Source: a virus
Virus record (IMG/VR): IMGVR_UViG_3300023202_000205
Coordinates: 1 to 64,000 of that record
DNA: 64,000 nucleotides
Direction: 5' to 3' (one strand)
The notes below the pieces were generated by a model. That model searched no databases. It was not told where the DNA came from and saw only the letters and a program-made list of their open reading frames with translations. Below, piece after piece: positions 44,554 to 64,000 of this stretch. Numbering within the stretch: the first letter of the stretch is position 1; each line of letters starts with the position of its first letter. The translations under genes were made by a program, and so were the position numbers.

Positions 44554-45492
44554 TTAGCTGGTACTGATACGAGCCTTCGCGATCGAAGCGGGGTTGCCGA
44601 TGGTGGCACCACGCTCAGTGTAAGCGAAGAACTCCAGGTTGTACGCTCTCTTATCCATGAAGAGGGTCACATCTTCCAGGATGAACGACTTGCCGATGAA
44701 CTCGGGCGAGGAGAACAACCAGAAGGTGTCATTCTCGACAAGCTCGGTCTTGCTGGTCACGACCCAATTCATTCCCAACAGCCGTTTCTGCTGGAAACCC
44801 TCGACGAACATGCTCTCGGAGAGGTCGCCACCAACCTCGTCGCGGCCGAACTTGGCCACGTCGTGGATGGTGATGTTGTTGACCAGGATGGTCACGCTCT
44901 CCAGATGAGCAAAGGTCTCGGGCAGGATCTTACGCATCTCGAAGAGCGAGTTGCGAGTGATACCGAGCGAGTCGATGATGTTCCGGTTCTGGATGACACC
45001 AGTCTCGGCCACGGTCGAACCTTCCGCACCAACGATCGTCTGCGCTGCAGCGATCATCTTGCGGTCGAACTCGAAGTCCATGTCGAGAATAGCGTTATCC
45101 GAGATCACCTGGCGGATGTCCATCCCGTAGGTTCGGAGCTCAGACACATCCTTGGTGAACTTCGGAGTGACGATCCGGTCGAAGAAGACCGGATAGCGAT
45201 CACCACGGAAGTAGTACTGGATGGGCTGAGTACCGAGCGGAATAGTGATAGCCGCCGGGCTAGCCGCTTCACGCTCGACGAGCTTGACGTTCTTGTCGGT
45301 GCCGAGCTGAGGTGTCAGCTCGTCATCGGCGAGCTTCACGCCAGGCAGCACCTTCTCGAACACCGAAGACTCGCGAATGCGAATTCGGGTGAAGTCGGTC
45401 ACCATGTCCTGGGCTTCCTTGACCTGCCCGGCATCGAGCAAGCCAAAGAAGGCCTTATTGGACTGGGCCGCACTGAGCTTCTGTTGAGTCAT
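44554..45492 (-). CDS. Major capsid protein (HK97-like fold)
   Basis: SD GAGG before ATG 45492. Follows the protease and scaffold genes, has a strong terminator and biased codons. FDRIVTPKFTKDVSELR...DMDFEFDRKMI pattern. Confidence 0.8.
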   Translation of the reverse strand: MTQQKLSAAQSNKAFFGLLDAGQVKEAQDMVTDFTRIRIRESSVFEKVLPGVKLADDELTPQLGTDKNVKLVEREAASPAAITIPLGTQPIQYYFRGDRYPVFFDRIVTPKFTKDVSELRTYGMDIRQVISDNAILDMDFEFDRKMIAAAQTIVGAEGSTVAETGVIQNRNIIDSLGITRNSLFEMRKILPETFAHLESVTILVNNITIHDVAKFGRDEVGGDLSESMFVEGFQQKRLLGMNWVVTSKTELVENDTFWLFSSPEFIGKSFILEDVTLFMDKRAYNLEFFAYTERGATIGNPASIAKARISTS

Positions 45493-45519
45493 TTTATTGG
45501 TTCCTCTCAAATCTCAGAA

Positions 45520-53236: not shown

Positions 53237-54355
53237 CTACTTGCGCTCCTCGGGGCGTAGATTCTTCAACGCCTTTTGGAGCATGGACTTAGGAGTCGTT
53301 TTCCGCTTCTGAAAGAGCACCTCACCCAGAGCTTGGGCCGTTTTCTCAACACCATGGGCGACGCCGCTAGACGACAGAGGTGGAGTACTATTGGTGCTCG
53401 CCCGGGTGAGTCCTTTACCAACCGCGTTTACCGCCGCTGATTGGTTCTCCGGCTTTTCCTGCTGAACCGGGTAACCCGTGCCGGGGGTGTGCTCTCCTAC
53501 ATTCCGCGTAATCCCCTGCGAGGTATAACCGTCGGAAGAACTGCTGTTCGCGTCCGCCGCCCGTTTCAAAACAGCTACTGTGGTCTTCATAGCTATTCCT
53601 TGTTTGATGTTGCCGGCTGAAGGCAGGTTCGCGCCTACAGCCTGCCCCTGATACCCACCTGCAGCGTGGCCACCACTAGGCTGAAAAGCCATCTGCGGTT
53701 GAGCTGGTTGGGGCTGCTGAGCTGATTGATTTTGACTGAAGGCATCCCTAACAGGCGTAACGACATTCTGGTCAAACCAGCCCGCCGCCTGATTGAGGAA
53801 TCCAGGACCTGTGTCCTTGGTCTGCTGTTCTTGCTGGGCTTGTGTCGGAACAGAGTTCGAAGCTGTATCCTGGGTAGCCCCCTGCTGGGCCTGAGTAGGC
53901 TGCTGAGTTTGAGCATACCAGCCAGGAAAGTTCTGCTTGTAATAGTTGATACGCTCTTGTCTTTTCGCCTCAGCTTGTTGCTGACGCTCCGCACGAGCAG
54001 ACCGCATATTGGCGCTCTGGGAACGAGCTTTGGCCTCGTACTGTGCGAGTTGCTCGGGTGTGGTCGACTCCGTCACCGGCATACCACCGGATGCTTGCCC
54101 CACCACGTAGCGCTTCTCACCTGTCTCCGGGTCAGTAAAGACACCTCTCGGCTCCCGAGCACCGGGTAGCTCTCTCCCCATAAGCCGCTCATCCAGCGAT
54201 TGCTCAGGCTGAGCTTGTTCAAGGTCAGCCTGTGTGAGCCCATACCACTGTCCGGTCTCCGGGTCGGCGTAGCTCATACCACTCGGAGAAGGCTCCACTG
54301 GCTGGCCTCGCTCAGAGCGCAGTCGCGTAGCAGCAAGCTTTCCTAGTCGGGACAT
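53237..54355 (-). CDS. Q/P-rich probable internal head protein
   Basis: TGATG overlap at 54355. Starts MSRLGKLAA. Confidence 0.6.
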   Translation of the reverse strand: MSRLGKLAATRLRSERGQPVEPSPSGMSYADPETGQWYGLTQADLEQAQPEQSLDERLMGRELPGAREPRGVFTDPETGEKRYVVGQASGGMPVTESTTPEQLAQYEAKARSQSANMRSARAERQQQAEAKRQERINYYKQNFPGWYAQTQQPTQAQQGATQDTASNSVPTQAQQEQQTKDTGPGFLNQAAGWFDQNVVTPVRDAFSQNQSAQQPQPAQPQMAFQPSGGHAAGGYQGQAVGANLPSAGNIKQGIAMKTTVAVLKRAADANSSSSDGYTSQGITRNVGEHTPGTGYPVQQEKPENQSAAVNAVGKGLTRASTNSTPPLSSSGVAHGVEKTAQALGEVLFQKRKTTPKSMLQKALKNLRPEERK

Positions 54356-56619
54356 CAACCAGCCTCATCCATGATGGGGGCAGCCCCCATACCGAAGTGT
54401 TCCGGGTCCCCGGCAAGGCTTCGCTTCTTGGAAAAGACAATGATGTCGCCGAGCTGCTCGAACACCGCCTTGAGGTTATCGACGAACTCAGCGAGATCGT
54501 TCTCCCCATAGCGCTCCTCGAAATCCTCGTAATGCCAATAGATCAGAAATAGCATCCGACCAATGCGGTCCATACCAGAAGTGATCGTAGGCAGGAACTT
54601 GTCGACCAGGTCCGTGGGAGTGTGATTCTTGATCAAGCTACCCAGCGCCGATGCGTCGAACACATCCTTCTGCCCCGTCTCGCCTGCTGTCTCGATAGCA
54701 GAGAACGTATTTGGCTCGCCCTCTGCGTCTCCACCACCGGCCCCAAACGGGGAGTAATATTGATAGAACTCCCTATTCTGAGGGGAACGAGCCTGGTTCA
54801 CCGTCTGAAACGGCACTGCTTGTTGGTGGAAGCTGGTTAAGAAGCCCCCCAAGTCGGTATCCTCGACTTCCGGGAAAGTCAACATCTCAGCAGCTTCTTT
54901 GGTAGTCGGACGATACTTGTACAACGAGATCGTCGGGGACGCTTCCTTGATGACTGTACGCGCGTCTTCCTCACTCAATCCCAGGTCCCGCATCATAAAC
55001 CGAATACCGTCAGCCTCTTTGCGGAAGTTGGCAGAAGTACCAGCAGTCTTGACCGTCACTTCCGTACCAGACCGCCACGCCCGCAGGTCCTCGGCAACCT
55101 TATCGAGTGCTTGGCGGATCGTGTTGTAGTTGCCGAAGTCCGCGCAATCCAAGATAGCGTCGTAGCGAGGCTCCTGATATCGCTCCACCTCATAAGGGCT
55201 TAGATCCCCCGTCTCGTCTACCTCTCGCATACGGAACTGATTGATCTTCAGCGCCCAGAAACGCTTACTGTTCACAATCAGGTAGTCCTTGGTATAGCTC
55301 GGAGCAGCGTCACCGGTCTCAGCCACGATCACCGAGTCGACCCGACAATTCGGGTCTCGCGGACGGCTACCAAAGTTGGGGACACCTGAGGCAGCCCCGC
55401 CGTTACCACCAACCCAGAGGTCCTTAAAGAGGTTATGAGGCGGGTTTCCATTGTTCCCCCGGGCTAGCCCCTCAACAGGGGCGCCTGCAGTCATGCAGTG
55501 TCGGTCATGGATGCGCAGAGTGGTAATGCCATCAACGCCCTTGTTGTTCTCTTTGATGCAGAAGCCAGCAGTAGACTCGCCGCTCTCAGAGATGAAGACC
55601 ACTACATCTTGGGGGCGAACATCGGCCGGATTACCTGCGTTCTCACTGAGCCAGTCGACCAACTCCTGGCGGCTATACTTACGCAGACACCACACCTCCG
55701 TACGGTCGATCTCACAGTATTTGCTGTTCTCTGGGTCGTAAACGAAGACGCAGTTGGTCAGCGTGTTTGATGGCGTAACTACCGCCAAACGAACAGAGCC
55801 GTCCTTCCAGAGGACATCGTACAACCCGCCTTCGGTGGGGTTCTCCAGACATTCTTCGGTCTCAGTGCGGTAGAGACGTGACTTGGAGACTTCCGGTCGG
55901 TTGTCGATGACCACCGTCCCACCTTCCAGGACGTCCTGCTTTTGCTCGTCAGTTAGTTCCTTGGCGCCCTCGTCAGTGACCGAATTGATGATCACCACCG
56001 CCTCTTCCTGGGCTTGCTTCTGTTGAGGAGCCGCGTCGGCCAGGTCGAGGTAATTGTAGCCAAACCTCTCGAAGTGATCGCGCAAACGAGGGTTAGCATC
56101 CAAAGCTTGCTTGAAGTAACCAGCCGCACCAATCTTACTCAGCTCCTCGGTCAGGCTGATGGATTCGACCTCGTCTTCACGATCACCCATCATGGCCTCG
56201 GCCAGCTTGAGATTGACCGAACCGCCACCGCCGGGAATGACCTTCATGCGGGTATAGTTTGGCACGTGGATACCACGCTCGTTACGAGAACGGGTATCAG
56301 GATCCCCAAGTCGGACCTGCCGACGGTCAATGATCGAACTCACCCACCCGTCCGTGAGTGGGACGAACAGATCAGACTTGACCGAGTACAGGCTATCTAG
56401 ACCTCTGATCTCTCCGTTCATGAAGAAAACAGGGGCGTAGTAGTAATCCTCGTCGATCTCGAAACCGAAGATACCAACTGCCCGCTGCCCGTCGTCCTCC
56501 TGCTTGAGCATCTGAAACCCGACCAGATAGTCGAGCAGGCTCTGACTCTTGTCACGCAGGTGAGAGTAGGCCAGATCGGAAAAAGTCTTCTCCAGCGCGG
56601 TTTCATTGGTCTGTGGCAT
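54355..56619 (-). CDS. Large probable head protein (K-x-A rich)
   Basis: 754 aa. NLKLAE, QKQAQ, DKVAE, VKTAG, IKEAS, TKEAA. Confidence 0.6.
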   Translation of the reverse strand: MPQTNETALEKTFSDLAYSHLRDKSQSLLDYLVGFQMLKQEDDGQRAVGIFGFEIDEDYYYAPVFFMNGEIRGLDSLYSVKSDLFVPLTDGWVSSIIDRRQVRLGDPDTRSRNERGIHVPNYTRMKVIPGGGGSVNLKLAEAMMGDREDEVESISLTEELSKIGAAGYFKQALDANPRLRDHFERFGYNYLDLADAAPQQKQAQEEAVVIINSVTDEGAKELTDEQKQDVLEGGTVVIDNRPEVSKSRLYRTETEECLENPTEGGLYDVLWKDGSVRLAVVTPSNTLTNCVFVYDPENSKYCEIDRTEVWCLRKYSRQELVDWLSENAGNPADVRPQDVVVFISESGESTAGFCIKENNKGVDGITTLRIHDRHCMTAGAPVEGLARGNNGNPPHNLFKDLWVGGNGGAASGVPNFGSRPRDPNCRVDSVIVAETGDAAPSYTKDYLIVNSKRFWALKINQFRMREVDETGDLSPYEVERYQEPRYDAILDCADFGNYNTIRQALDKVAEDLRAWRSGTEVTVKTAGTSANFRKEADGIRFMMRDLGLSEEDARTVIKEASPTISLYKYRPTTKEAAEMLTFPEVEDTDLGGFLTSFHQQAVPFQTVNQARSPQNREFYQYYSPFGAGGGDAEGEPNTFSAIETAGETGQKDVFDASALGSLIKNHTPTDLVDKFLPTITSGMDRIGRMLFLIYWHYEDFEERYGENDLAEFVDNLKAVFEQLGDIIVFSKKRSLAGDPEHFGMGAAPIMDEAG

Positions 56620-56680: not shown

Positions 56681-58579
56681 TCAGCCTTCTTCGCCGTATT
56701 TACCGAGTTCCCCCAGCTGGGCTCCCAACCGCTCTGGTTGGCTAAAGGCTGGTACGAAGCTCGTGCTCTTGGTGTCTGACTCCGCCCCGCGATGGAGCGA
56801 CTTCTGAAACGCCCTGGCAGTGTAGAAGCCGGCCTGCCGTGTCTTCCAGTCAGGGTCGTTATAAACGCTGAGGACCCCCCGAACCATGTGTGGCTCGAAG
56901 TCAGGTTCATCATCGTGTGCGTACACACTGCGGATGTTGTACTTTTTCAGCTTATCGATGACCTTCGAGTTCACTCGAGTACCAGGTGTGTAGTGGAGTA
57001 CCGGCTCTTCCAGGTACTTGTCTTTAAGCTTGTTAACAGGTAGTTCCTGAGCGTTTCTACGCGGTTTGTACTTCGCCATGAGGCGTCCGTAGGGTACCAC
57101 ATCTCCGTAGATGTTGTCTTCGATACCATCGGGAGACGTTATCTGAGCCCAGTTCAGCAGCCCTGCAACCACCGACTCCACATTCCGACGGTGTGCTTTC
57201 ACACCCGAATTCTCCAGCGCCTCACGAAGATGTTGGGTGTAAATCCGCCTGGCCTCGCCCATACCCCGCAGCCTCACAAGATCGCCAGGGTGGGGTACGC
57301 CATCTGTCAGATCGTCTCCCTGCTCTACCTGGTCCCCTACTTTAACTGATACCTTCAAATCTGGGCCAGCGTAGTACTCCCTGTCCCCAACGGTGACGTA
57401 GTGACCACCTTGGGAAGCTTCCTTGATATCGTTGACCGCCCCCTCCTCTTCAACAAGAGGTCCGGATTCCGGAAAGTTCTGAGGTGCTTGGATCAATCGG
57501 TTGATGTACTCGAAACCACCACGAGTAGCTCTACCGCCTACCCCAGCAGTATGTTTGCTGGAAAGGGCCCCCTGGCTCAGCCGCTCTCCAATCGCCTGAG
57601 CTGCTGGAATACCGATGTTATCTCCCACCAAATGAAGCCCTCGACGAATACGTCGACCAGCGGCCTTGGCGCTAATACCCCCATCCTCGCTGATCTCCGT
57701 CAACGGACTATAGATGAGAATCTCATCACTCCCATCCTGTAGATCCTCAAGAATTTCGTCAGTCAAGATAGTACCGGCCGTATACTCCCCCGTGTCGTAA
57801 GCCAAGACGGCTCCGATGTTATCTTTATCTGACGGGTCCACCGGGAGCCCCGTTGGAAGACGGGACTGAACAGGTTCATCATGGGTGACCACCTGGCGAT
57901 GTGCTGCATTCACCAGTTGCTTGCTGAGATAACCGCTATCCGCCGTAGCGAGCTTGACGTCCAATTGGCCTTTTCGCTGTCCGTAAGAGGCTGCAAAGTA
58001 CTCAGCTGGGGTGAACCCTTCTGCGTAGCTATGGAGCAACGGCAGAGGAATGAAATCATCCTCCTGATCAGTCGCTAACAGATCAGCGCCTCGCAGACTG
58101 GCAAAAGACCCGGGATTCCCACGAGCTCCCGACTCAATTTGAACCGCAAACGGGGACCCCTCTTCCCGCGCCTCAGCCATGAGCGCCTCCTGCATGGGGC
58201 CACTGATTGGAAGCAGGGTCTCAACGATGGCGTTTTTACGCTCCTCATCAGTCAAGCTGTCGTCATCAATGATCGCTCGTACCTTTTTCCGAGCGGGCTC
58301 CAGGATCTCTTCCCGAGCCTTGGAACGGCGTAGCCCAGCGAGGTTCACCGAAAGACCTTCCGTCCAAACAGTCGTCTTACCGACCTCAGACAACTCCTGG
58401 AGGACCTCTTTGTACTGTTCCGGGTACTTATCGGCCAGCTCCATGAACAGCTTGTGAGTGCCCTTCTTATCGAGACGATGCTGCCCCTTACGCAACTCCT
58501 CGGGGAGCGCGTCATTGATCATGATCGTACCGATCGTGGTAATGCCTTTGCCGTCAGCCACTTGTCGACTGCTCCACAT
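56681..58579 (-). CDS. rpoC: RNA polymerase beta' subunit, C-terminal part (bridge helix, trigger loop)
   Basis: IESGARG, YGQRKGQLDVKLATADSGYLSKQLV (bridge helix), AAQAIGERLSQGALSSKH (trigger loop) and GVKAHRRNVESVV. Confidence 0.92.
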   Translation of the reverse strand: MWSSRQVADGKGITTIGTIMINDALPEELRKGQHRLDKKGTHKLFMELADKYPEQYKEVLQELSEVGKTTVWTEGLSVNLAGLRRSKAREEILEPARKKVRAIIDDDSLTDEERKNAIVETLLPISGPMQEALMAEAREEGSPFAVQIESGARGNPGSFASLRGADLLATDQEDDFIPLPLLHSYAEGFTPAEYFAASYGQRKGQLDVKLATADSGYLSKQLVNAAHRQVVTHDEPVQSRLPTGLPVDPSDKDNIGAVLAYDTGEYTAGTILTDEILEDLQDGSDEILIYSPLTEISEDGGISAKAAGRRIRRGLHLVGDNIGIPAAQAIGERLSQGALSSKHTAGVGGRATRGGFEYINRLIQAPQNFPESGPLVEEEGAVNDIKEASQGGHYVTVGDREYYAGPDLKVSVKVGDQVEQGDDLTDGVPHPGDLVRLRGMGEARRIYTQHLREALENSGVKAHRRNVESVVAGLLNWAQITSPDGIEDNIYGDVVPYGRLMAKYKPRRNAQELPVNKLKDKYLEEPVLHYTPGTRVNSKVIDKLKKYNIRSVYAHDDEPDFEPHMVRGVLSVYNDPDWKTRQAGFYTARAFQKSLHRGAESDTKSTSFVPAFSQPERLGAQLGELGKYGEEG

Positions 58580-58769
58580 TGATTCGCTTTACCTTTAGCT
58601 GCTCACAGCTACTGACAAAGTCTCGGTGCTCTAGATCAGAGTGGATGAGAATCCCTGCGTGTTCGTAAGTCAGCGCCACAGGCTCCCCAGTATCCGCAAA
58701 TACGGTCACCTGCGATACCGGCATTCGGTACCGCTTACCGTTCTCGTGGACTACTTCGACGTAGAACAT
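58554..58769 (-). CDS. Small hypothetical protein
   Basis: 71-aa ORF overlapping the beta'-C start. Confidence 0.55.
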   Translation of the reverse strand: MFYVEVVHENGKRYRMPVSQVTVFADTGEPVALTYEHAGILIHSDLEHRDFVSSCEQLKVKRINVEQSTSG

Positions 58770-58799
58770 GCATCAGCTCCAATAGTGTTCACGTGAACA

Positions 58800-60557
58800 C
58801 TATTTCTGCTCAGGTAGGGCAGGTCTCTTACCCCCACCAAACTGGGGAACCCCTGTGCCCAGCCGCCTGATAGGTTCACTTCCCACTGCCGGTTTGATAT
58901 CAGGCTTCTTGATGCGCTGTCGAGGCCTCAAGGTCCCACTATAGGTGACAGACGGATCAAGTGTCAGCGCACTGGCCACTAGATGTGGATTCTTCGCAAA
59001 AAGAGCCCCCATACGCCTTCCCCGGGACCCTCGTCCCAGATCGCTGAAATCGCCTGTGCTCATTGCCTGAGCTACTTCCTCACGGTTTCGGGCGATGAAG
59101 CGTTGGGCACTCCTCCCAAGATCGCCTCGTCGACGGAAACCATGGTGAACCTCCTGGGCCATCATAGCTGGGACCAACTGAGGATTGGTACTCGCCAAGT
59201 CACCCAACAAGCGGGCGCCACTACCCTCTATGCCCTCCAGCTCCCTCATCAAGCCACGGTCCTTCATGGCCCGCTCTCCCAAGCGCTGAATAGCAGTGGT
59301 GTCCCCACGCTCCTTGGCGCTCTCGAGCCGGCGGCGGTAGCGACTGTCGAATCGAACAGCCTTATCCAGGGCCTCTGCCCACGGTTGCTTCTGTAACTGG
59401 GCATAGGACTGCGCAGCTGGCTCAAGCAGCTTCTCAGCATCGGCTCCGAGCTGAGTACGGAGAACACCTGACTGACCTACCAGCTGCATAGCGGTCATTG
59501 GGTCAATGCCTTGCTGGTCAGCGATGTCGGCCGCCTTGGCCATTTGACGCGCGTCGATCATGCCACGCCGGGCAAGATCTCCCAGGTAGTTAGCTGACTG
59601 GATCAATTGTGAAGGATCCTCAGCGTAGCCCTGTCCGAGGCGGCTAGCCAACGACATCGCTCCACCAAAGGTCTGAGCAAGGCCCTGCTTGTGAAGTGCA
59701 TCAGCCGATTTGGCGATGTTGGCGGCATGCGCCATGTTCGCCCGATTACCCAGCCGCTCTCTGGCAAAGCCCATCGCGCTTGCCGCTAGCTGAGCAGGGA
59801 TCGGACGCCCCTCTTGGTTGAACCACCCTTGGTTATACGCTTGGCGAAAGTTTTGAATGTTCTGAGCGAAAAGACCCTCGTCGAAACGGCCTTCATTTTG
59901 GGCCATCGTCATCTTCACAAACGGGGAAAAATCGGCAATGAAGTTAGGGTCCATCGCGCTCAGAGTAGACGCAAGCTCGGGCACCGCAGGAGCTAACTGC
60001 CCATACATCATCCCTAGCTGCTGGGGCGGCATACTCTTGACCCAGCTAGTGGCCGCTTCGCCACTCAGCCCACCGAGCCAGTCCTGCCGGATATTCTTGG
60101 GGATCTTGTTGATCCACTCCCCCGCCATGTCCGCAATCCGACCGACGAGACGGCCACTCTCCTGGAACTGTCTGCCCATCATCTCACGATTAACACGAGC
60201 TGCTTCGCGGGTCGCCGCTGGATCGCCGCCGTACCCGACCTGGATAGGCTCCATCAGATCAAGGCCGGTTTTCTCCTTCACCCACGGAGCTACGAAGGGA
60301 AGCAATAGCGCTGGCGCCGTTCCCATCTCCCCCATCACGTTCTGCAAAAGGCTGATACCTATGCCAGCAGGACTGGTTGTATTGCCTTCCCGCCCTGCAA
60401 ACCCAGGTACTTGCTGACTCTCATATTGAGCGTGCTGAGCTCGACGTTGATTGACGTCAGGAAAAAATCCCCTGAAGCCACCCGGAGGCGGACCACCTGG
60501 TCTACCTGGTTGCTGCACCTGGGCGAACTTAGTAAGAGCTTTCTTACCTAACGTCAT
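58800..60557 (-). CDS. Helical A/Q/G-rich protein (tape-measure-like or ejection protein)
   Basis: 585 aa starting MTLGKKALTKFAQ, with helical low-complexity composition. Confidence 0.45.
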   Translation of the reverse strand: MTLGKKALTKFAQVQQPGRPGGPPPGGFRGFFPDVNQRRAQHAQYESQQVPGFAGREGNTTSPAGIGISLLQNVMGEMGTAPALLLPFVAPWVKEKTGLDLMEPIQVGYGGDPAATREAARVNREMMGRQFQESGRLVGRIADMAGEWINKIPKNIRQDWLGGLSGEAATSWVKSMPPQQLGMMYGQLAPAVPELASTLSAMDPNFIADFSPFVKMTMAQNEGRFDEGLFAQNIQNFRQAYNQGWFNQEGRPIPAQLAASAMGFARERLGNRANMAHAANIAKSADALHKQGLAQTFGGAMSLASRLGQGYAEDPSQLIQSANYLGDLARRGMIDARQMAKAADIADQQGIDPMTAMQLVGQSGVLRTQLGADAEKLLEPAAQSYAQLQKQPWAEALDKAVRFDSRYRRRLESAKERGDTTAIQRLGERAMKDRGLMRELEGIEGSGARLLGDLASTNPQLVPAMMAQEVHHGFRRRGDLGRSAQRFIARNREEVAQAMSTGDFSDLGRGSRGRRMGALFAKNPHLVASALTLDPSVTYSGTLRPRQRIKKPDIKPAVGSEPIRRLGTGVPQFGGGKRPALPEQK

Positions 60558-60576
60558 AACTGTGTTATCGCCTCAG

Positions 60577-61455
60577 TTAGGGTTTGTTCTTCTGAACAGT
60601 TTGTCTCGAGACACCCTTAGTAGTCCCACCAGTAACCTTGCGTCCACTCACCATGTTCTTCTGCCGTTCCTCGGCCTGCTCCCTGGCTTTACGACGGTTA
60701 CGTTCTGAGCGGTCCGTATGTCCCAGGCCCGACAAACGGCGGTTCCTCAAAGCCAAGTCGCTGGCCATCTGAGCGGCGCTCTGACTCTGTGCCAGCTTTG
60801 CTTTAACAGCCTCCCCAAGCTTGAGAGGGCCCCCCACCATATCCGGGCTGAACCCAGGCTGGCCAGTCACAGGCCCTGGTTGAGCTTCCGGAGGGGGCGG
60901 TTCTGCTTGTTCAGCAGCCTTCCCATCTCCCTCAGCAGCCTCTTGAGGCTTGGCCTTCCCAACCATCTCCAGCGCTTGTCTGACGATATCCATCGTGTTC
61001 TGCTGGATACCCTTCAAGGCTTCGACGTCTCCACCGGAAATAGAGGTGTCGCCCTCACCGCCCTCTTCCATGCCTTCCTCACCAGGAAGCGGGGGGAGTT
61101 CTTCTCCCCCAGGAAGTGGGGGAAGACCGGCCATAGGGTCTCCGCCACCGGCCGCCATAGGATCCAAAGGAGGAGCCCCACCGCCAGCAGCTGGATCCAT
61201 GGGCGGGGGAGGCATTCCACCACCCCCGGGAGGTGGTGCCCCGCCCATCATCGCAGGATCCATGGGAGCTCCGCCCATCATCGCCGGATCCATGGGAGCT
61301 CCGCCCCCACCCCCGCCGGGCGCGACAGGCATACCACCTGGCCCAGCGGCCTGCTGTCCTTGCTTGGCAGTCATCGGCACAAACGCCTGTTTCTGACGGT
61401 ATTCTTCCAACCGCTCTTGAAGCGCTCTTTTGAAGAATCGTGCGTGATTGGTCAT
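60577..61455 (-). CDS. Gly/Pro/Met-rich probable internal head protein
   Basis: RQKQAF, then GGAPMDPAMM repeats. Confidence 0.6.
   Translation of the reverse strand: MTNHARFFKRALQERLEEYRQKQAFVPMTAKQGQQAAGPGGMPVAPGGGGGGAPMDPAMMGGAPMDPAMMGGAPPPGGGGMPPPPMDPAAGGGAPPLDPMAAGGGDPMAGLPPLPGGEELPPLPGEEGMEEGGEGDTSISGGDVEALKGIQQNTMDIVRQALEMVGKAKPQEAAEGDGKAAEQAEPPPPEAQPGPVTGQPGFSPDMVGGPLKLGEAVKAKLAQSQSAAQMASDLALRNRRLSGLGHTDRSERNRRKAREQAEERQKNMVSGRKVTGGTTKGVSRQTVQKNKP
61241..61306. repeat. 30-bp tandem repeat encoding GGAPMDPAMM
   Basis: 61241-61270 and 61271-61300 differ at one base, followed by a partial third copy. Confidence 0.9.
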
Positions 61456-61496
61456 CGTTCCATCCTAACCAGTGTTGTAGTGTTGCCTGAGAGCCG

Positions 61497-61916
61497 TTAT
61501 TTTCGTCGGGAAAGAAGATAGGCCAGGATACCGCCTGCGCCTGAGCCACCCAAAGCCCCAAGCCCAGATACACCCAAATCACCCGCGAGGATTCCTGGGG
61601 CTGCACCCAAGGCACCCCCTAAACCGACTCCGGCGCCCGTGGCTCCCCCGGTAAGGGCTGACCGAAGGATAGCGTCACCACGATCCTCGTCCTCGTCCTT
61701 CTCGCGGAGAGCACCCACGAGCCCCCCAATGCCGGTTCCTATGATGCCGGGCAAAACAGGGGACAGAGCCATTCCCGTAGGGTTGAGCTTACCAGGACTC
61801 TTGAGGCGTATGGTAGGCTCATATGACGAAGGATCGAGATCCTCCCTCGAGATGTCGTACCCCGGGTGTGTGGCACCTAGTTTAGAGAGTCTGTGATACA
61901 TGTCCGTCGGGCTCAT
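61497..61916 (-). CDS. Glycine-zipper membrane-type protein (paralogue-like to 9101-9469)
   Basis: GTGIGGLVGAL-REKDEDED-RGDAILRSALTGGATGAGVGLGG. Confidence 0.7.
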   Translation of the reverse strand: MSPTDMYHRLSKLGATHPGYDISREDLDPSSYEPTIRLKSPGKLNPTGMALSPVLPGIIGTGIGGLVGALREKDEDEDRGDAILRSALTGGATGAGVGLGGALGAAPGILAGDLGVSGLGALGGSGAGGILAYLLSRRK

Positions 61917-64000
61917 TGTTCTAGAATCCTTATAGGGGTTCTGGCATTGATCTTTCCGCGAGCAAATGCTCTACGGGCCTCTTCCTCCGTAGCGAAGACC
62001 TGTACAGGTTCCTCCTTATCGGGGGTGCTGGCAAGATACAATCCAGCCAGGTAGTCCTGCATCGGCTCCAGGTGGGTCTCGAAGGTACCTGTGAAAAACA
62101 GGTTCTTGGAGGGCATCAGCTTCGTTTTAGCGTCTTGAATGGCCTCGGAGGAGGCTGGTACGTGGATATTGATCTGGTCACCATCGTAGTCACCACCGAT
62201 ACCCTTGAGAGTATGGTAAGGCATGCCAATGGCGTCGTCATCCCGCAGCTTGCCCCACGCGCCCACATAGGCATAGCGATGAAGCGCGGGCGCGCGGTTA
62301 TAGACCACGGGCCTTTCCTTCATCTCTTCTTCCAAAGCCTTTTGAGCAACTGGCTTACGTTCTTTAACTGCCTTCAGGGCGTCCGTCGCCTCCATCCCCA
62401 ACCGTCGTAACCGACGGATAACGTAGGGTTTGAAAATCGTGAAAGCCATATCCTTGGGGACACCCACCTCATCCATGTCGAGTGACTTATCGGCTGTGAT
62501 AACCCCACGTCCCACAGAATCGACAGCGGTCCCGATGACCTTACGCTGGTAAAAAGCACCCTTGGGACTCTGGCCGACACCGATAGCGTGTCGCAGAACG
62601 CCTTTCACACCCTGCTCCGCAGACTTCTGGCTGACCGGATCCCTTGTACCCGAGATAGCCCCCACCGCTTGCATCATCGTCAGATACTCGTCACCAGCCT
62701 CCCCGAATTGCTCCTTCGCACCCTTGTAGTTTTCCCGGGATTCGAGCAACTCGTGATACAAGTAGTTCAGGTCGTGAACCACATCGATACCACGAGCACT
62801 TGTGATCGGCCGATACTTCGGGGGAACAACTGGGACCTTCGTGACCATTAGCTGTTCTGGGCTGAGCTCCATATTCTTAAGCCCAGCCAGGTAGTTCAGG
62901 CGCTTGACCGCCTGGTCTCGCTTCGTCTTCCGCCCAGAGCGTATGGTCTCCTTGGCAAGTCCCATTTCCCGATCGATATTGATCGACTTCAATGCAGTCT
63001 GCACTGCCTGAGGGCCGGTTTCCCCATTGAGCTCTTCCTTGCCGGCTAGAACAGAGTCGAGCTTCTTACCCGTCACACCAAGCAACTTCTGGATGGGATC
63101 CAGGAATAGTGGGTGCGGTATCGGGGCGGGGAGCGTGATCTTGGCAAAACGAGACCCCTCTGCACCTCCTGTAGCTTTGATATCGAAGAGCCCACCCGGT
63201 ACAGGTTTCATTGTTTCGAAATTGAACGTACCAGGATTCTCAACCTCATGATCTGCCAAGGTATCCACTTGGTCGTCCGTCAGAGGTGTTAGTTGAGAAC
63301 GTGTGCCTTTCTCCCGGACATTAACCCCGGCTCCGCGAAGCAGATCCTTGAAGCGCTGGTTGGCAAAGCTCTCTGAGGGAGCTATCGGTTCCTCACCCGC
63401 GCGAATGGCTCGCCAGTAGTCATCATTGCGCTGCCCACGGACTAGTTTGGCGTCACGTAAGAAGTTGGTAGCCCCCGCCGCAAGCAGCGCGTGAGCATCA
63501 AGCATGCTAATCCGCTTACTACCTTCTTTGCCACCCTTGGCCGGGATGCCCTCAGTCGTATACGTACCAACATCTCGAGCGCCAAGTTTGCTTTCAGCCA
63601 TGTGATGGAGCTTCATGAAGTAGCTCTCGCCAGTAAACACATTCGGGATCTTGGATCCATCCCTCGGGTCCGTAAGCGTCTCGGTATCGCGAATCTTCCC
63701 GGTTACCGGGTCCTGCTCGATAACGCCATACTTGAGCGCCTCTTGAAGAGCGAACTCCGTCACGTCTTCCGTGTCAAAACCCTTCACCGCGTAAGGTTTG
63801 CCGCGCTTACGGGCAGCTTTGCCCAGTAGCGACTCGGCTAAGGCGCCCGGATTGGTACGACTAACGATACCCAGGGCGTTGGCGATTACCTCAATGGGGC
63901 GCCCCTCTGAGTCGAGTGGCATTTGATCATCCGGCCGGATCTCCGAGATAACGCCTTTGTTGCCAAAACGACCTGACAGCTTATCTGCACCACGCATGGC
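61913..64000 (-). CDS. rpoBC: RNA polymerase beta (C-terminal) / beta' (N-terminal, catalytic) fusion; 5' end beyond the window
   Basis: Beta motifs ADKLSGRFGNKGVIS, YFMKLHH and ESF. Then, in frame, beta' motifs GGLFD, VPVVPPKYRP, DLNYLY, YNRAPALHR and GGDYDGDQ. The frame is open to the window edge. Confidence 0.95.
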   Translation of the reverse strand, partial: AMRGADKLSGRFGNKGVISEIRPDDQMPLDSEGRPIEVIANALGIVSRTNPGALAESLLGKAARKRGKPYAVKGFDTEDVTEFALQEALKYGVIEQDPVTGKIRDTETLTDPRDGSKIPNVFTGESYFMKLHHMAESKLGARDVGTYTTEGIPAKGGKEGSKRISMLDAHALLAAGATNFLRDAKLVRGQRNDDYWRAIRAGEEPIAPSESFANQRFKDLLRGAGVNVREKGTRSQLTPLTDDQVDTLADHEVENPGTFNFETMKPVPGGLFDIKATGGAEGSRFAKITLPAPIPHPLFLDPIQKLLGVTGKKLDSVLAGKEELNGETGPQAVQTALKSINIDREMGLAKETIRSGRKTKRDQAVKRLNYLAGLKNMELSPEQLMVTKVPVVPPKYRPITSARGIDVVHDLNYLYHELLESRENYKGAKEQFGEAGDEYLTMMQAVGAISGTRDPVSQKSAEQGVKGVLRHAIGVGQSPKGAFYQRKVIGTAVDSVGRGVITADKSLDMDEVGVPKDMAFTIFKPYVIRRLRRLGMEATDALKAVKERKPVAQKALEEEMKERPVVYNRAPALHRYAYVGAWGKLRDDDAIGMPYHTLKGIGGDYDGDQINIHVPASSEAIQDAKTKLMPSKNLFFTGTFETHLEPMQDYLAGLYLASTPDKEEPVQVFATEEEARRAFARGKINARTPIRILEQ

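Follow-up and report, generated by a model that had tools for sequence, protein, structure and literature searches.

The window analysed here, a stretch of 64,000 nucleotides that forms the first 64 kb of the IMG/VR virus record IMGVR_UViG_3300023202_000205 (179,364 bp, estimated to be 96% complete), carries at its right-hand end the two genes of a phage RNA polymerase of bacterial type with redrawn subunit boundaries: the β-subunit is fused in a single reading frame to the front part of β′ (β::β′N), and the remainder of β′ (β′C) is encoded by a separate gene. This fused and split anatomy is well supported by sequence comparison, and from its genomic setting and from a cultured relative we infer a σ-dependent, α-free and virion-delivered mode of use.

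Anatomy of the two polymerase chains

The open reading frame (ORF) of the fused chain runs open past the right edge of the window (Table 1). Extension into the full record recovered the complete β part in a gene of 1488 amino acids (aa) at contig positions 61913-66379 on the minus strand, which contains no internal stops and has its first 793 codons outside the window. In this chain Pfam identifies Rpb2_3 and the barrel domain Rpb2_6 (PF00562, E=9e-50) of β, followed in the same frame by Rpb1_1 and Rpb1_2 of β′, with PF00623 corresponding to the β′ barrel. Alignment with solved structures places aa 55-1056 over almost the whole of cyanobacterial β, and the β part is continuous over this range in both the PDB and the BLASTP mapping. 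As for β′, aa 1107-1487 correspond to residues 166-554 of the E. coli subunit in the PDB alignment, and the combined PDB, NCBIfam and BLASTP mapping extends the correspondence to aa ~1036-1487 (β′ 28-554). In BLASTP against Salmonella RpoB and RpoC, β is matched up to residue 1337 of 1342 and β′ from residue 28 onwards. The β′ share of the chain therefore amounts to residues ~15-554 in E. coli numbering when the junction described below is included, and it contains the DxDGD loop. The initial annotation, which had been made from the window alone, had read the frame as the C-terminus of β fused to β′ regions that include the catalytic loop, ending near the equivalent of LHARVKVRI; the Pfam, PDB and NCBIfam mappings agree on the fusion, and the end of the chain (...ARTPIRILEQ) indeed pairs with ...HARVKVRIT of Salmonella and E. 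coli. By these sequence mappings, the 1488-aa chain is confirmed as a head-to-tail fusion of a whole β with the front portion of β′, no linker lying between them; as judged by alignment, this portion comprises the clamp helices together with the Mg-binding double-psi barrel.

The rest of β′ resumes in a gene of its own, 3333 nt downstream of the fused gene, as had been noted from the window (3.3 kb away, at the equivalent of TTVGR). The N-terminus of β′C, MWSSRQVADGKGITTIG, was aligned to DTTVGR (~574), and the chain starts 13 residues ahead of the corresponding ITTIG. It bears Rpb1_5 (PF04998). On the rpoC profile of NCBIfam the first chain covers positions 157-534 and the second 549-1058, leaving essentially no gap in β′ between them, and by this alignment the second chain is the remainder of β′, with the bridge helix, the trigger loop and the clamp's C-terminal portion. 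The catalytic signatures are intact across both chains (GRFGNKG, GGDYDGD, the bridge helix and the trigger-loop His), and the phage enzyme is ~26-30% identical to bacterial β and β′.

At the junction itself, the sequence ...GVNVR is followed immediately by EKGTRSQLTPLTDDQV, at the point where the end of β (...GINIELEDE) leads straight into about residue 15 of β′. Alignment with the Salmonella subunits shows that there is no linker and that ~4 residues of the β C-terminus and ~14 residues of the β′ N-terminus are missing. A short distance into β′ the zinc ribbon has been deleted. Both zinc sites of β′ are missing in this phage, and neither polymerase chain contains a single cysteine. This junction recurs, together with the loss of the zinc ribbon, in the relative L008 (72% identity), in Salmonella phage Arash, in Vibrio phage D69 and in L009, in which β and the complete β′ form one chain. 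Arash, D69 and L009 still have the second zinc site with its four cysteines, which the subclade of the present phage has lost.

Table 1. Features of the polymerase locus and of related genes; positions are those of the window unless marked as contig positions.
Feature	Position	Strand	Remarks
β::β′N gene, part in the window	61913..64000	-	last 695 codons and stop of 1488
β active-site lysine motif GRFGNKG	63953..63973	-	aa 803-809
β/β′ junction GVNVR/EKGTRSQ	63293..63328	-	aa 1018-1029; alignment with Salmonella rpoB/rpoC
Zinc-ribbon deletion site	63146..63169	-	~32 residues gone, E. coli C70-C88
Catalytic Mg loop GGDYDGDQ	62174..62197	-	aa 1395-1402; equivalent of NADFDGDQ
C-terminal end of fused chain, ARTPIRILEQ	61916..61945	-	aligned to β′ 551-554
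139-aa glycine-zipper-like ORF	61497..61916	-	membrane-like, cysteine-free
292-aa ORF	60577..61455	-	no cysteine; matches no family; conserved in part in L008 (72% identity)
585-aa ORF	58800..60557	-	cysteine-free; 31% identity with the 623-aa gene at the corresponding site of L008
71-aa ORF	58554..58769	-	overlaps the start of β′C; conserved in near relatives only
β′C gene, 632 aa	56681..58579	-	rpoC_TIGR profile 549-1058 and C-terminal tail
Bridge helix	57902..57979	-	β′C aa 201-226
Trigger loop with conserved His	57533..57589	-	β′C aa 331-349
754-aa gene	54355..56619	-	directly downstream of β′C; C-terminal part homologous to Arash virion gp218
Major capsid protein homologue (Arash gp226)	44554..45510	-	by homology
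σ70-family gene, 283 aa	19338..20189	-	Arash Gp10 homologue, cysteine-free
Portal	contig 72858-74747		with the capsid gene, brackets the polymerase genes

Conservation of the junction and position of the β′ break

A search with the junction region returned 261 clusters at 90% identity; the best 120 of these 261 all extend across the junction and possess β and β′N domains, and most of the 120 cover the junction region fully. In an exhaustive search of representatives at 50% identity, the best 150 all span the junction. Homologues free of inteins and homing endonucleases typically have lengths of ~1440-1530 aa. The same gene pair occurs in complete genomes of cultured phages, namely Arash (gp206, 1525 aa, and gp216, 606 aa) and the Vibrio phages D69, D148 and D181. 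The distance between the two genes varies among the pairs (0.64 kb in D69, 0.9 kb, 3.3 kb in the present phage, 3.9 kb and 4.8 kb in Arash), and the genes that lie between them differ. Since the present record is a metagenome assembly, mis-assembly, a frameshift or a sequencing error that joined rpoB to rpoC or broke rpoC has to be considered, and an error at the junctions had been named at the outset as what could overturn the finding. However, the identical junction and break recur in hundreds of independent assemblies and in four genomes of cultured phages, the stop codon of the fusion overlaps the start codon of the next gene (ATGA), and β′C has a start of its own, so that the probability of an artefact is negligible. 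Because at least 150 clusters as well as cultured phages share the junction and the break, an assembly error is excluded as far as sequence comparison can decide. The combination of fusion and split first noticed in this contig is thus real, yet it is not peculiar to the contig and marks a very large clade.

A sister group of relatives has ~2000-2065 aa with β and the complete β′ in one chain. This fully fused family is also very large and occurs on contigs of up to ~186 kb (P0285-P0288, P0374-P0492); one member, L009:10001-16087, is encoded on a contig of phage-like character, downstream of a portal homologue. Two trees were calculated. In a 24-row tree of β′ equivalents, for which the two β′ halves of the split forms were joined, all fused forms constitute one clade with a Shimodaira-Hasegawa-like approximate likelihood-ratio test (SH-aLRT) support of 100; the 14 bacteria lie outside it, as do Rhizobium phage RHph_Y65 and Vibrio phage Va2, whose β′ is neither fused nor split. 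In an 82-row tree of the β′N region all fused forms again constitute one clade (SH-aLRT 99), within which 41 split forms including the present phage form a subclade (SH-aLRT 99). The majority of the remaining clade members consist of one chain of ~2000 aa. Because both trees unite all fused forms, a single origin of the fusion is well supported. Arash and D69 group with the fully fused forms with an SH-aLRT of 90-93, which is not decisive; monophyly of the split forms is absent from both trees and is not rejected by the approximately unbiased (AU) test (p=0.244). The break in β′ may accordingly have arisen once and later been healed, or it may have arisen twice in the same loop. Given the long branches and the narrow sampling of bacteria, no deeper placement is claimed.

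The break falls between residues ~554 and ~574, in a loop that varies among enterobacteria, and the breaks of Arash and D69 fall in the same loop, within 1-3 residues of that of the present phage. The initial annotation had placed the split near the cyanobacterial boundary between rpoC1 and rpoC2. It is near, but the site is not identical: by NCBIfam coordinates, the cyanobacterial boundary lies ~28 residues farther into β′C, with position 30 of the rpoC2 model pairing with residue 58 of β′C, and the model of the cyanobacterial γ-subunit extends ~64 positions beyond the end of the phage fused chain. The tail of γ was placed by these coordinates; a PDB search with the short query gave designed barrel proteins only. 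In the phiKZ-like phage YerA41, β′N reaches about residue 622 of β′, ~50-70 residues past the break described here. The phiKZ-type and cyanobacterial breaks are said in a review to coincide after the first barrel (PMC7598289), which holds at the level of domains only, because the break points of YerA41 and cyanobacteria differ by residue; at residue level there are three distinct β′ break points within about 70 residues.

Rejoining of β′ by a split intein was considered and rejected: the chain ends sit in conserved β′ sequence, which leaves no room for intein halves, and the Cys or His-Asn signature is absent. Separately, inteins or elements of LAGLIDADG/HNH type interrupt a large number of the homologous polymerase genes, with proteins of up to ~3000 aa. 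Alignment breaks cluster near positions ~44, 159, 281, 480 and 610 of the 695-aa fragment in the window, of which ~610 is the catalytic loop; none of the clusters lies at the β′ break. In some relatives (P0256-P0268) β′C is 1110-1500 aa long and has a long additional C-terminal region devoid of intein domains. This region was compared with the 754-aa protein encoded downstream of β′C, and a fusion of the two was rejected since the extension of the long forms (for example P0256, 1394 aa) is dissimilar.

Partner subunits, genomic setting and proposed mode of use

No match to α (PF01000, PF01193) or ω (PF01192) was found in the 96%-complete genome, while the control families were matched, and a second polymerase was likewise not found, the genome giving a single polymerase match. 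The genome does encode a protein of the σ70 family, with scores of 40.8 bits for Sigma70_r3 and 28.1 bits for Sigma70_r4_2, both over the Pfam cut-offs; it also aligns along most of the NCBIfam models of SigB/F/G and FliA type, with scores under the cut-offs. Its product is presumed to be the initiation factor of the polymerase described here. A promoter search by k-mer enrichment in intergenic regions was swamped by a presumed CRISPR repeat of the phage, and no promoter is claimed. The top enriched k-mers, for example AGAGGCTTGGTATCTG and CTATGCCCGC, occur in ~30-39 copies with both strands counted, and look like one repeated element, presumed from its copy number to be a CRISPR repeat.

In both the present phage and Arash, the polymerase genes lie between the portal gene and the major capsid gene, and they adjoin homologues of the Arash virion proteins gp218 and gp222; the capsid protein of the present phage has no Pfam family match. 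The absence of cysteine extends over a run of genes from positions 56681-64000 of the window into contig positions 64001-72848, which includes β′C, the 585-, 292- and 139-aa ORFs, the 1488-aa fusion and upstream ORFs of 237 aa, 427 aa and 1046 aa. With a mean of 1.32% cysteine in the proteome, the probability of finding none in the 2120 aa of the two polymerase chains is ~6e-13. Cysteine does occur in the portal, in the gp218-like protein and in the replication enzymes. Judged from composition, the cysteine-free run may be a mark of ejected cargo. Proteomic data are available for virions of Arash, among whose proteins the fusion Gp206 gave the most spectra of all, and in which Gp216 (β′C) and Gp10 (σ) were also detected (PMC10585845). 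As both chains and σ are abundant in Arash virions, and as the polymerase locus is flanked by the portal and capsid genes, injection of the enzyme is likely in the present phage by analogy; the Arash virion data, the position in the head module and the absence of cysteine together support a packaged and ejected enzyme.

On this basis, we propose that the two chains would assemble non-covalently around the active centre, as in the split β′ of cyanobacteria, and that the covalent link between β and β′ would assume part of the assembly role of the α dimer. The phage σ factor would steer the enzyme to phage promoters, and the enzyme would travel in the capsid and enter the cell together with the DNA, which would allow transcription of early genes without the host polymerase. 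Later genes would probably be transcribed by the same enzyme, since it is the sole polymerase encoded. This explanation as a whole, a two-chain bacterial-type RNA polymerase owned by the phage and including the proposed assembly, use of σ and delivery from the capsid, is in our judgement the probable one.

Several observations weigh against it. The basis for packaging is a single proteomic study, made on a relative that is ~30% identical, in a preparation that held many non-structural enzymes. Sigma70_r2 had no match in a six-frame search, and region 2 of the σ protein is visible only weakly, through NCBIfam alignments below the cut-offs. Moreover, α and ω could be recruited from the host, and the σ gene could serve the host polymerase. 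The same two-chain enzyme might be purely intracellular, made after infection, with early genes transcribed by a host polymerase perhaps redirected by the phage σ factor. The Arash particle preparation also held ribonucleotide reductases, ligases and helicases, and its authors allow for carry-over (PMC10585845), which is possible for abundant proteins. However, Gp206 tops the spectra among the virion proteins, the polymerase genes lie inside the head module in both phages, and the chains and σ are cysteine-free and the chains devoid of zinc sites, unlike the replication enzymes of the phage; we therefore hold a purely intracellular enzyme to be unlikely.

Head proteins of giant phages such as phiKZ and SPN3US are often trimmed by a prohead protease. 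The 1488-aa chain might by the same token be a precursor that a head protease cuts at or near the junction to give β, β′N and β′C in a phiKZ-like manner. Against such processing, the junction contains no linker, spacer or K-x-A motif, and the direct join has been kept in both the split and the fully fused lineages. The 100% peptide coverage of Arash Gp206 (PMC10585845) also speaks against it, although a single cut is still compatible with that figure, and a precursor is accordingly considered very improbable.

The ATG of the 139-aa ORF, which lies between the two polymerase genes, overlaps the TGA of the fusion gene, and this ATGA overlap suggests translational coupling of the two. The 585-aa ORF has no Pfam or PHROG match, and no counterpart was found in the same place in relatives other than L008; in the Atlas its neighbours, none of which reaches the 0.9 level, comprise hypothetical proteins of viruses and helical proteins resembling tape measures. 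The 71-aa ORF was considered as a conserved small subunit and rejected: its L008 counterpart is 50% identical, but the small ORFs found in D69 and Arash are unrelated to it.

To our knowledge, cellular RNA polymerases always require an α-type assembly platform. The phiKZ and AR9 enzymes show that α is dispensable in phages, yet they are too divergent for residue-by-residue comparison. The present enzyme retains ~26-30% identity to bacterial β and β′ and a recognisable σ factor, yet it has been reduced to a pair of chains devoid of zinc sites and of cysteine, which makes it a tractable minimal model for the assembly of the large subunits, for the need for zinc sites and α, and for the delivery of an enzyme of ~240 kDa through a phage tail; the cultured relatives on Salmonella and Vibrio put experiments within reach. 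As metagenomes contain hundreds of clusters of this large clade, transcription independent of the host may be far commoner among phages of 160-220 kb than the focus on nucleus-forming jumbo phages suggests. A broader and more tentative reading, which we find possible but somewhat doubtful, joins these points: a very large and almost unstudied phage lineage would possess the smallest known bacterial-type RNA polymerase, with one or two chains, free of zinc, cysteine, α and ω and using its own σ, built for packing in the capsid and for being threaded into the host along with the DNA. In such a lineage the fusion would replace the α platform, and the break, which perhaps originated repeatedly in one and the same loop, would be adaptive for packaging or ejection rather than neutral.

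Comparison with known systems

No published description of a β::β′N plus β′C enzyme was found in the literature consulted, which included the Arash paper (PMC10585845), the study of the mReC lineage (PMC7481178), the review PMC7598289, comparative genomics of jumbo phages and a 2026 review of jumbo phages, and none of PHROGs, Pfam and NCBIfam includes a corresponding family; prior cataloguing of the architecture, which the initial annotation had allowed for, was thus not encountered. The Arash paper annotates the two genes as β and β′ with the fusion unmentioned (PMC10585845), and the records of the cultured phages label the pair 'beta' and 'beta prime' in the same way, with the fusion not noted.

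Among cellular enzymes, the RpoBC of Helicobacteraceae and Wolbachia (Zakharova et al. 1999 and Lane & Darst 2010, as cited in PMC7483510) resembles the phage chain in that the C-terminus of β and the N-terminus of β′ share one frame. It differs in its size of ~2840-2890 aa, in its complete β′ and in its zinc sites and α and ω partners, and the phage chain scores far under the cut-offs of the RpoBC models (285 bits versus 5372 for NF007172 and 264 versus 4632 for NF011417). As judged from the trees, the phage fusion arose independently. The split β′ of cyanobacteria and plastids (γ/RpoC1 and RpoC2) shares the two-chain β′ and the break after the catalytic barrel, whereas its β is a separate subunit and its break is the more distal one described above. 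The scores of the phage chains again remain under the cut-offs of the corresponding models (134 versus 975.9 for TIGR02387 and 83.7 versus 467.4 for TIGR02388).

Among phage enzymes, those of phiKZ and AR9 are phage-encoded, lack α and ω and have a virion-packaged form (PMC7598289, PMC7824862), and they include a fifth subunit of gp68/gp226 type (PMC7598289, PMC7824862). They share with the present phage the split of β′ after the first barrel and the absence of α and ω. In phiKZ and AR9, however, β is also split, into two or three chains, there are two paralogous polymerase sets and no σ factor is present (PMC7598289), whereas the present phage has a continuous β, one polymerase set and a σ70-family factor, and the phiKZ/AR9 sequences are much more divergent; the distinction from these split patterns that had been drawn in the initial annotation is thereby borne out. 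The mReC lineage (Weinheimer & Aylward 2020) has phage polymerase subunits that are bacterial-like and yet fall outside the sampled bacteria, and capsid proteins matching T4 Gp23 (PF07068) (PMC7481178). That lineage is defined by separate β and β′ genes of at least 800 aa each together with a Gp23-family capsid protein, and the present phage has no stand-alone β′.

The closest comparisons lie around the fused clade itself. The unfused β′ of RHph_Y65 (Kleczkowskaviridae) and Va2 is bacterial-like and falls outside the sampled bacteria, and in the 82-row tree rooted on the sampled bacteria no branches lie closer to the fused clade than those of these two phages; their β′ differs in being separate and full-length (1127-1192 aa) and in having zinc-site cysteines. 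The fully fused forms (P0286/L009, ~2000-2040 aa, in uncultured phages of ~160-190 kb) share the junction, the zinc-ribbon deletion and the clade, and differ in that their β′ is unbroken through the loop in which the gene of the present phage breaks. Finally, the enzymes of Arash/D69 type (Arash OQ632216), with a fused chain of 1525-1527 aa and a β′C of 606-609 aa, agree with the present phage in the junction, in the loss of the zinc ribbon and in the loop that is broken, with genes beside the portal in the head module and a homologous σ factor (Arash Gp10). The present chains of 1488 and 632 aa fall within the ranges of this type, ~1450-1530 aa for β::β′N and ~600-635 aa for β′C. They differ in having only ~30% identity to the present phage and in the genes between the two chains, which are nine mostly opposite-strand ORFs in Arash and two small ORFs in D69.

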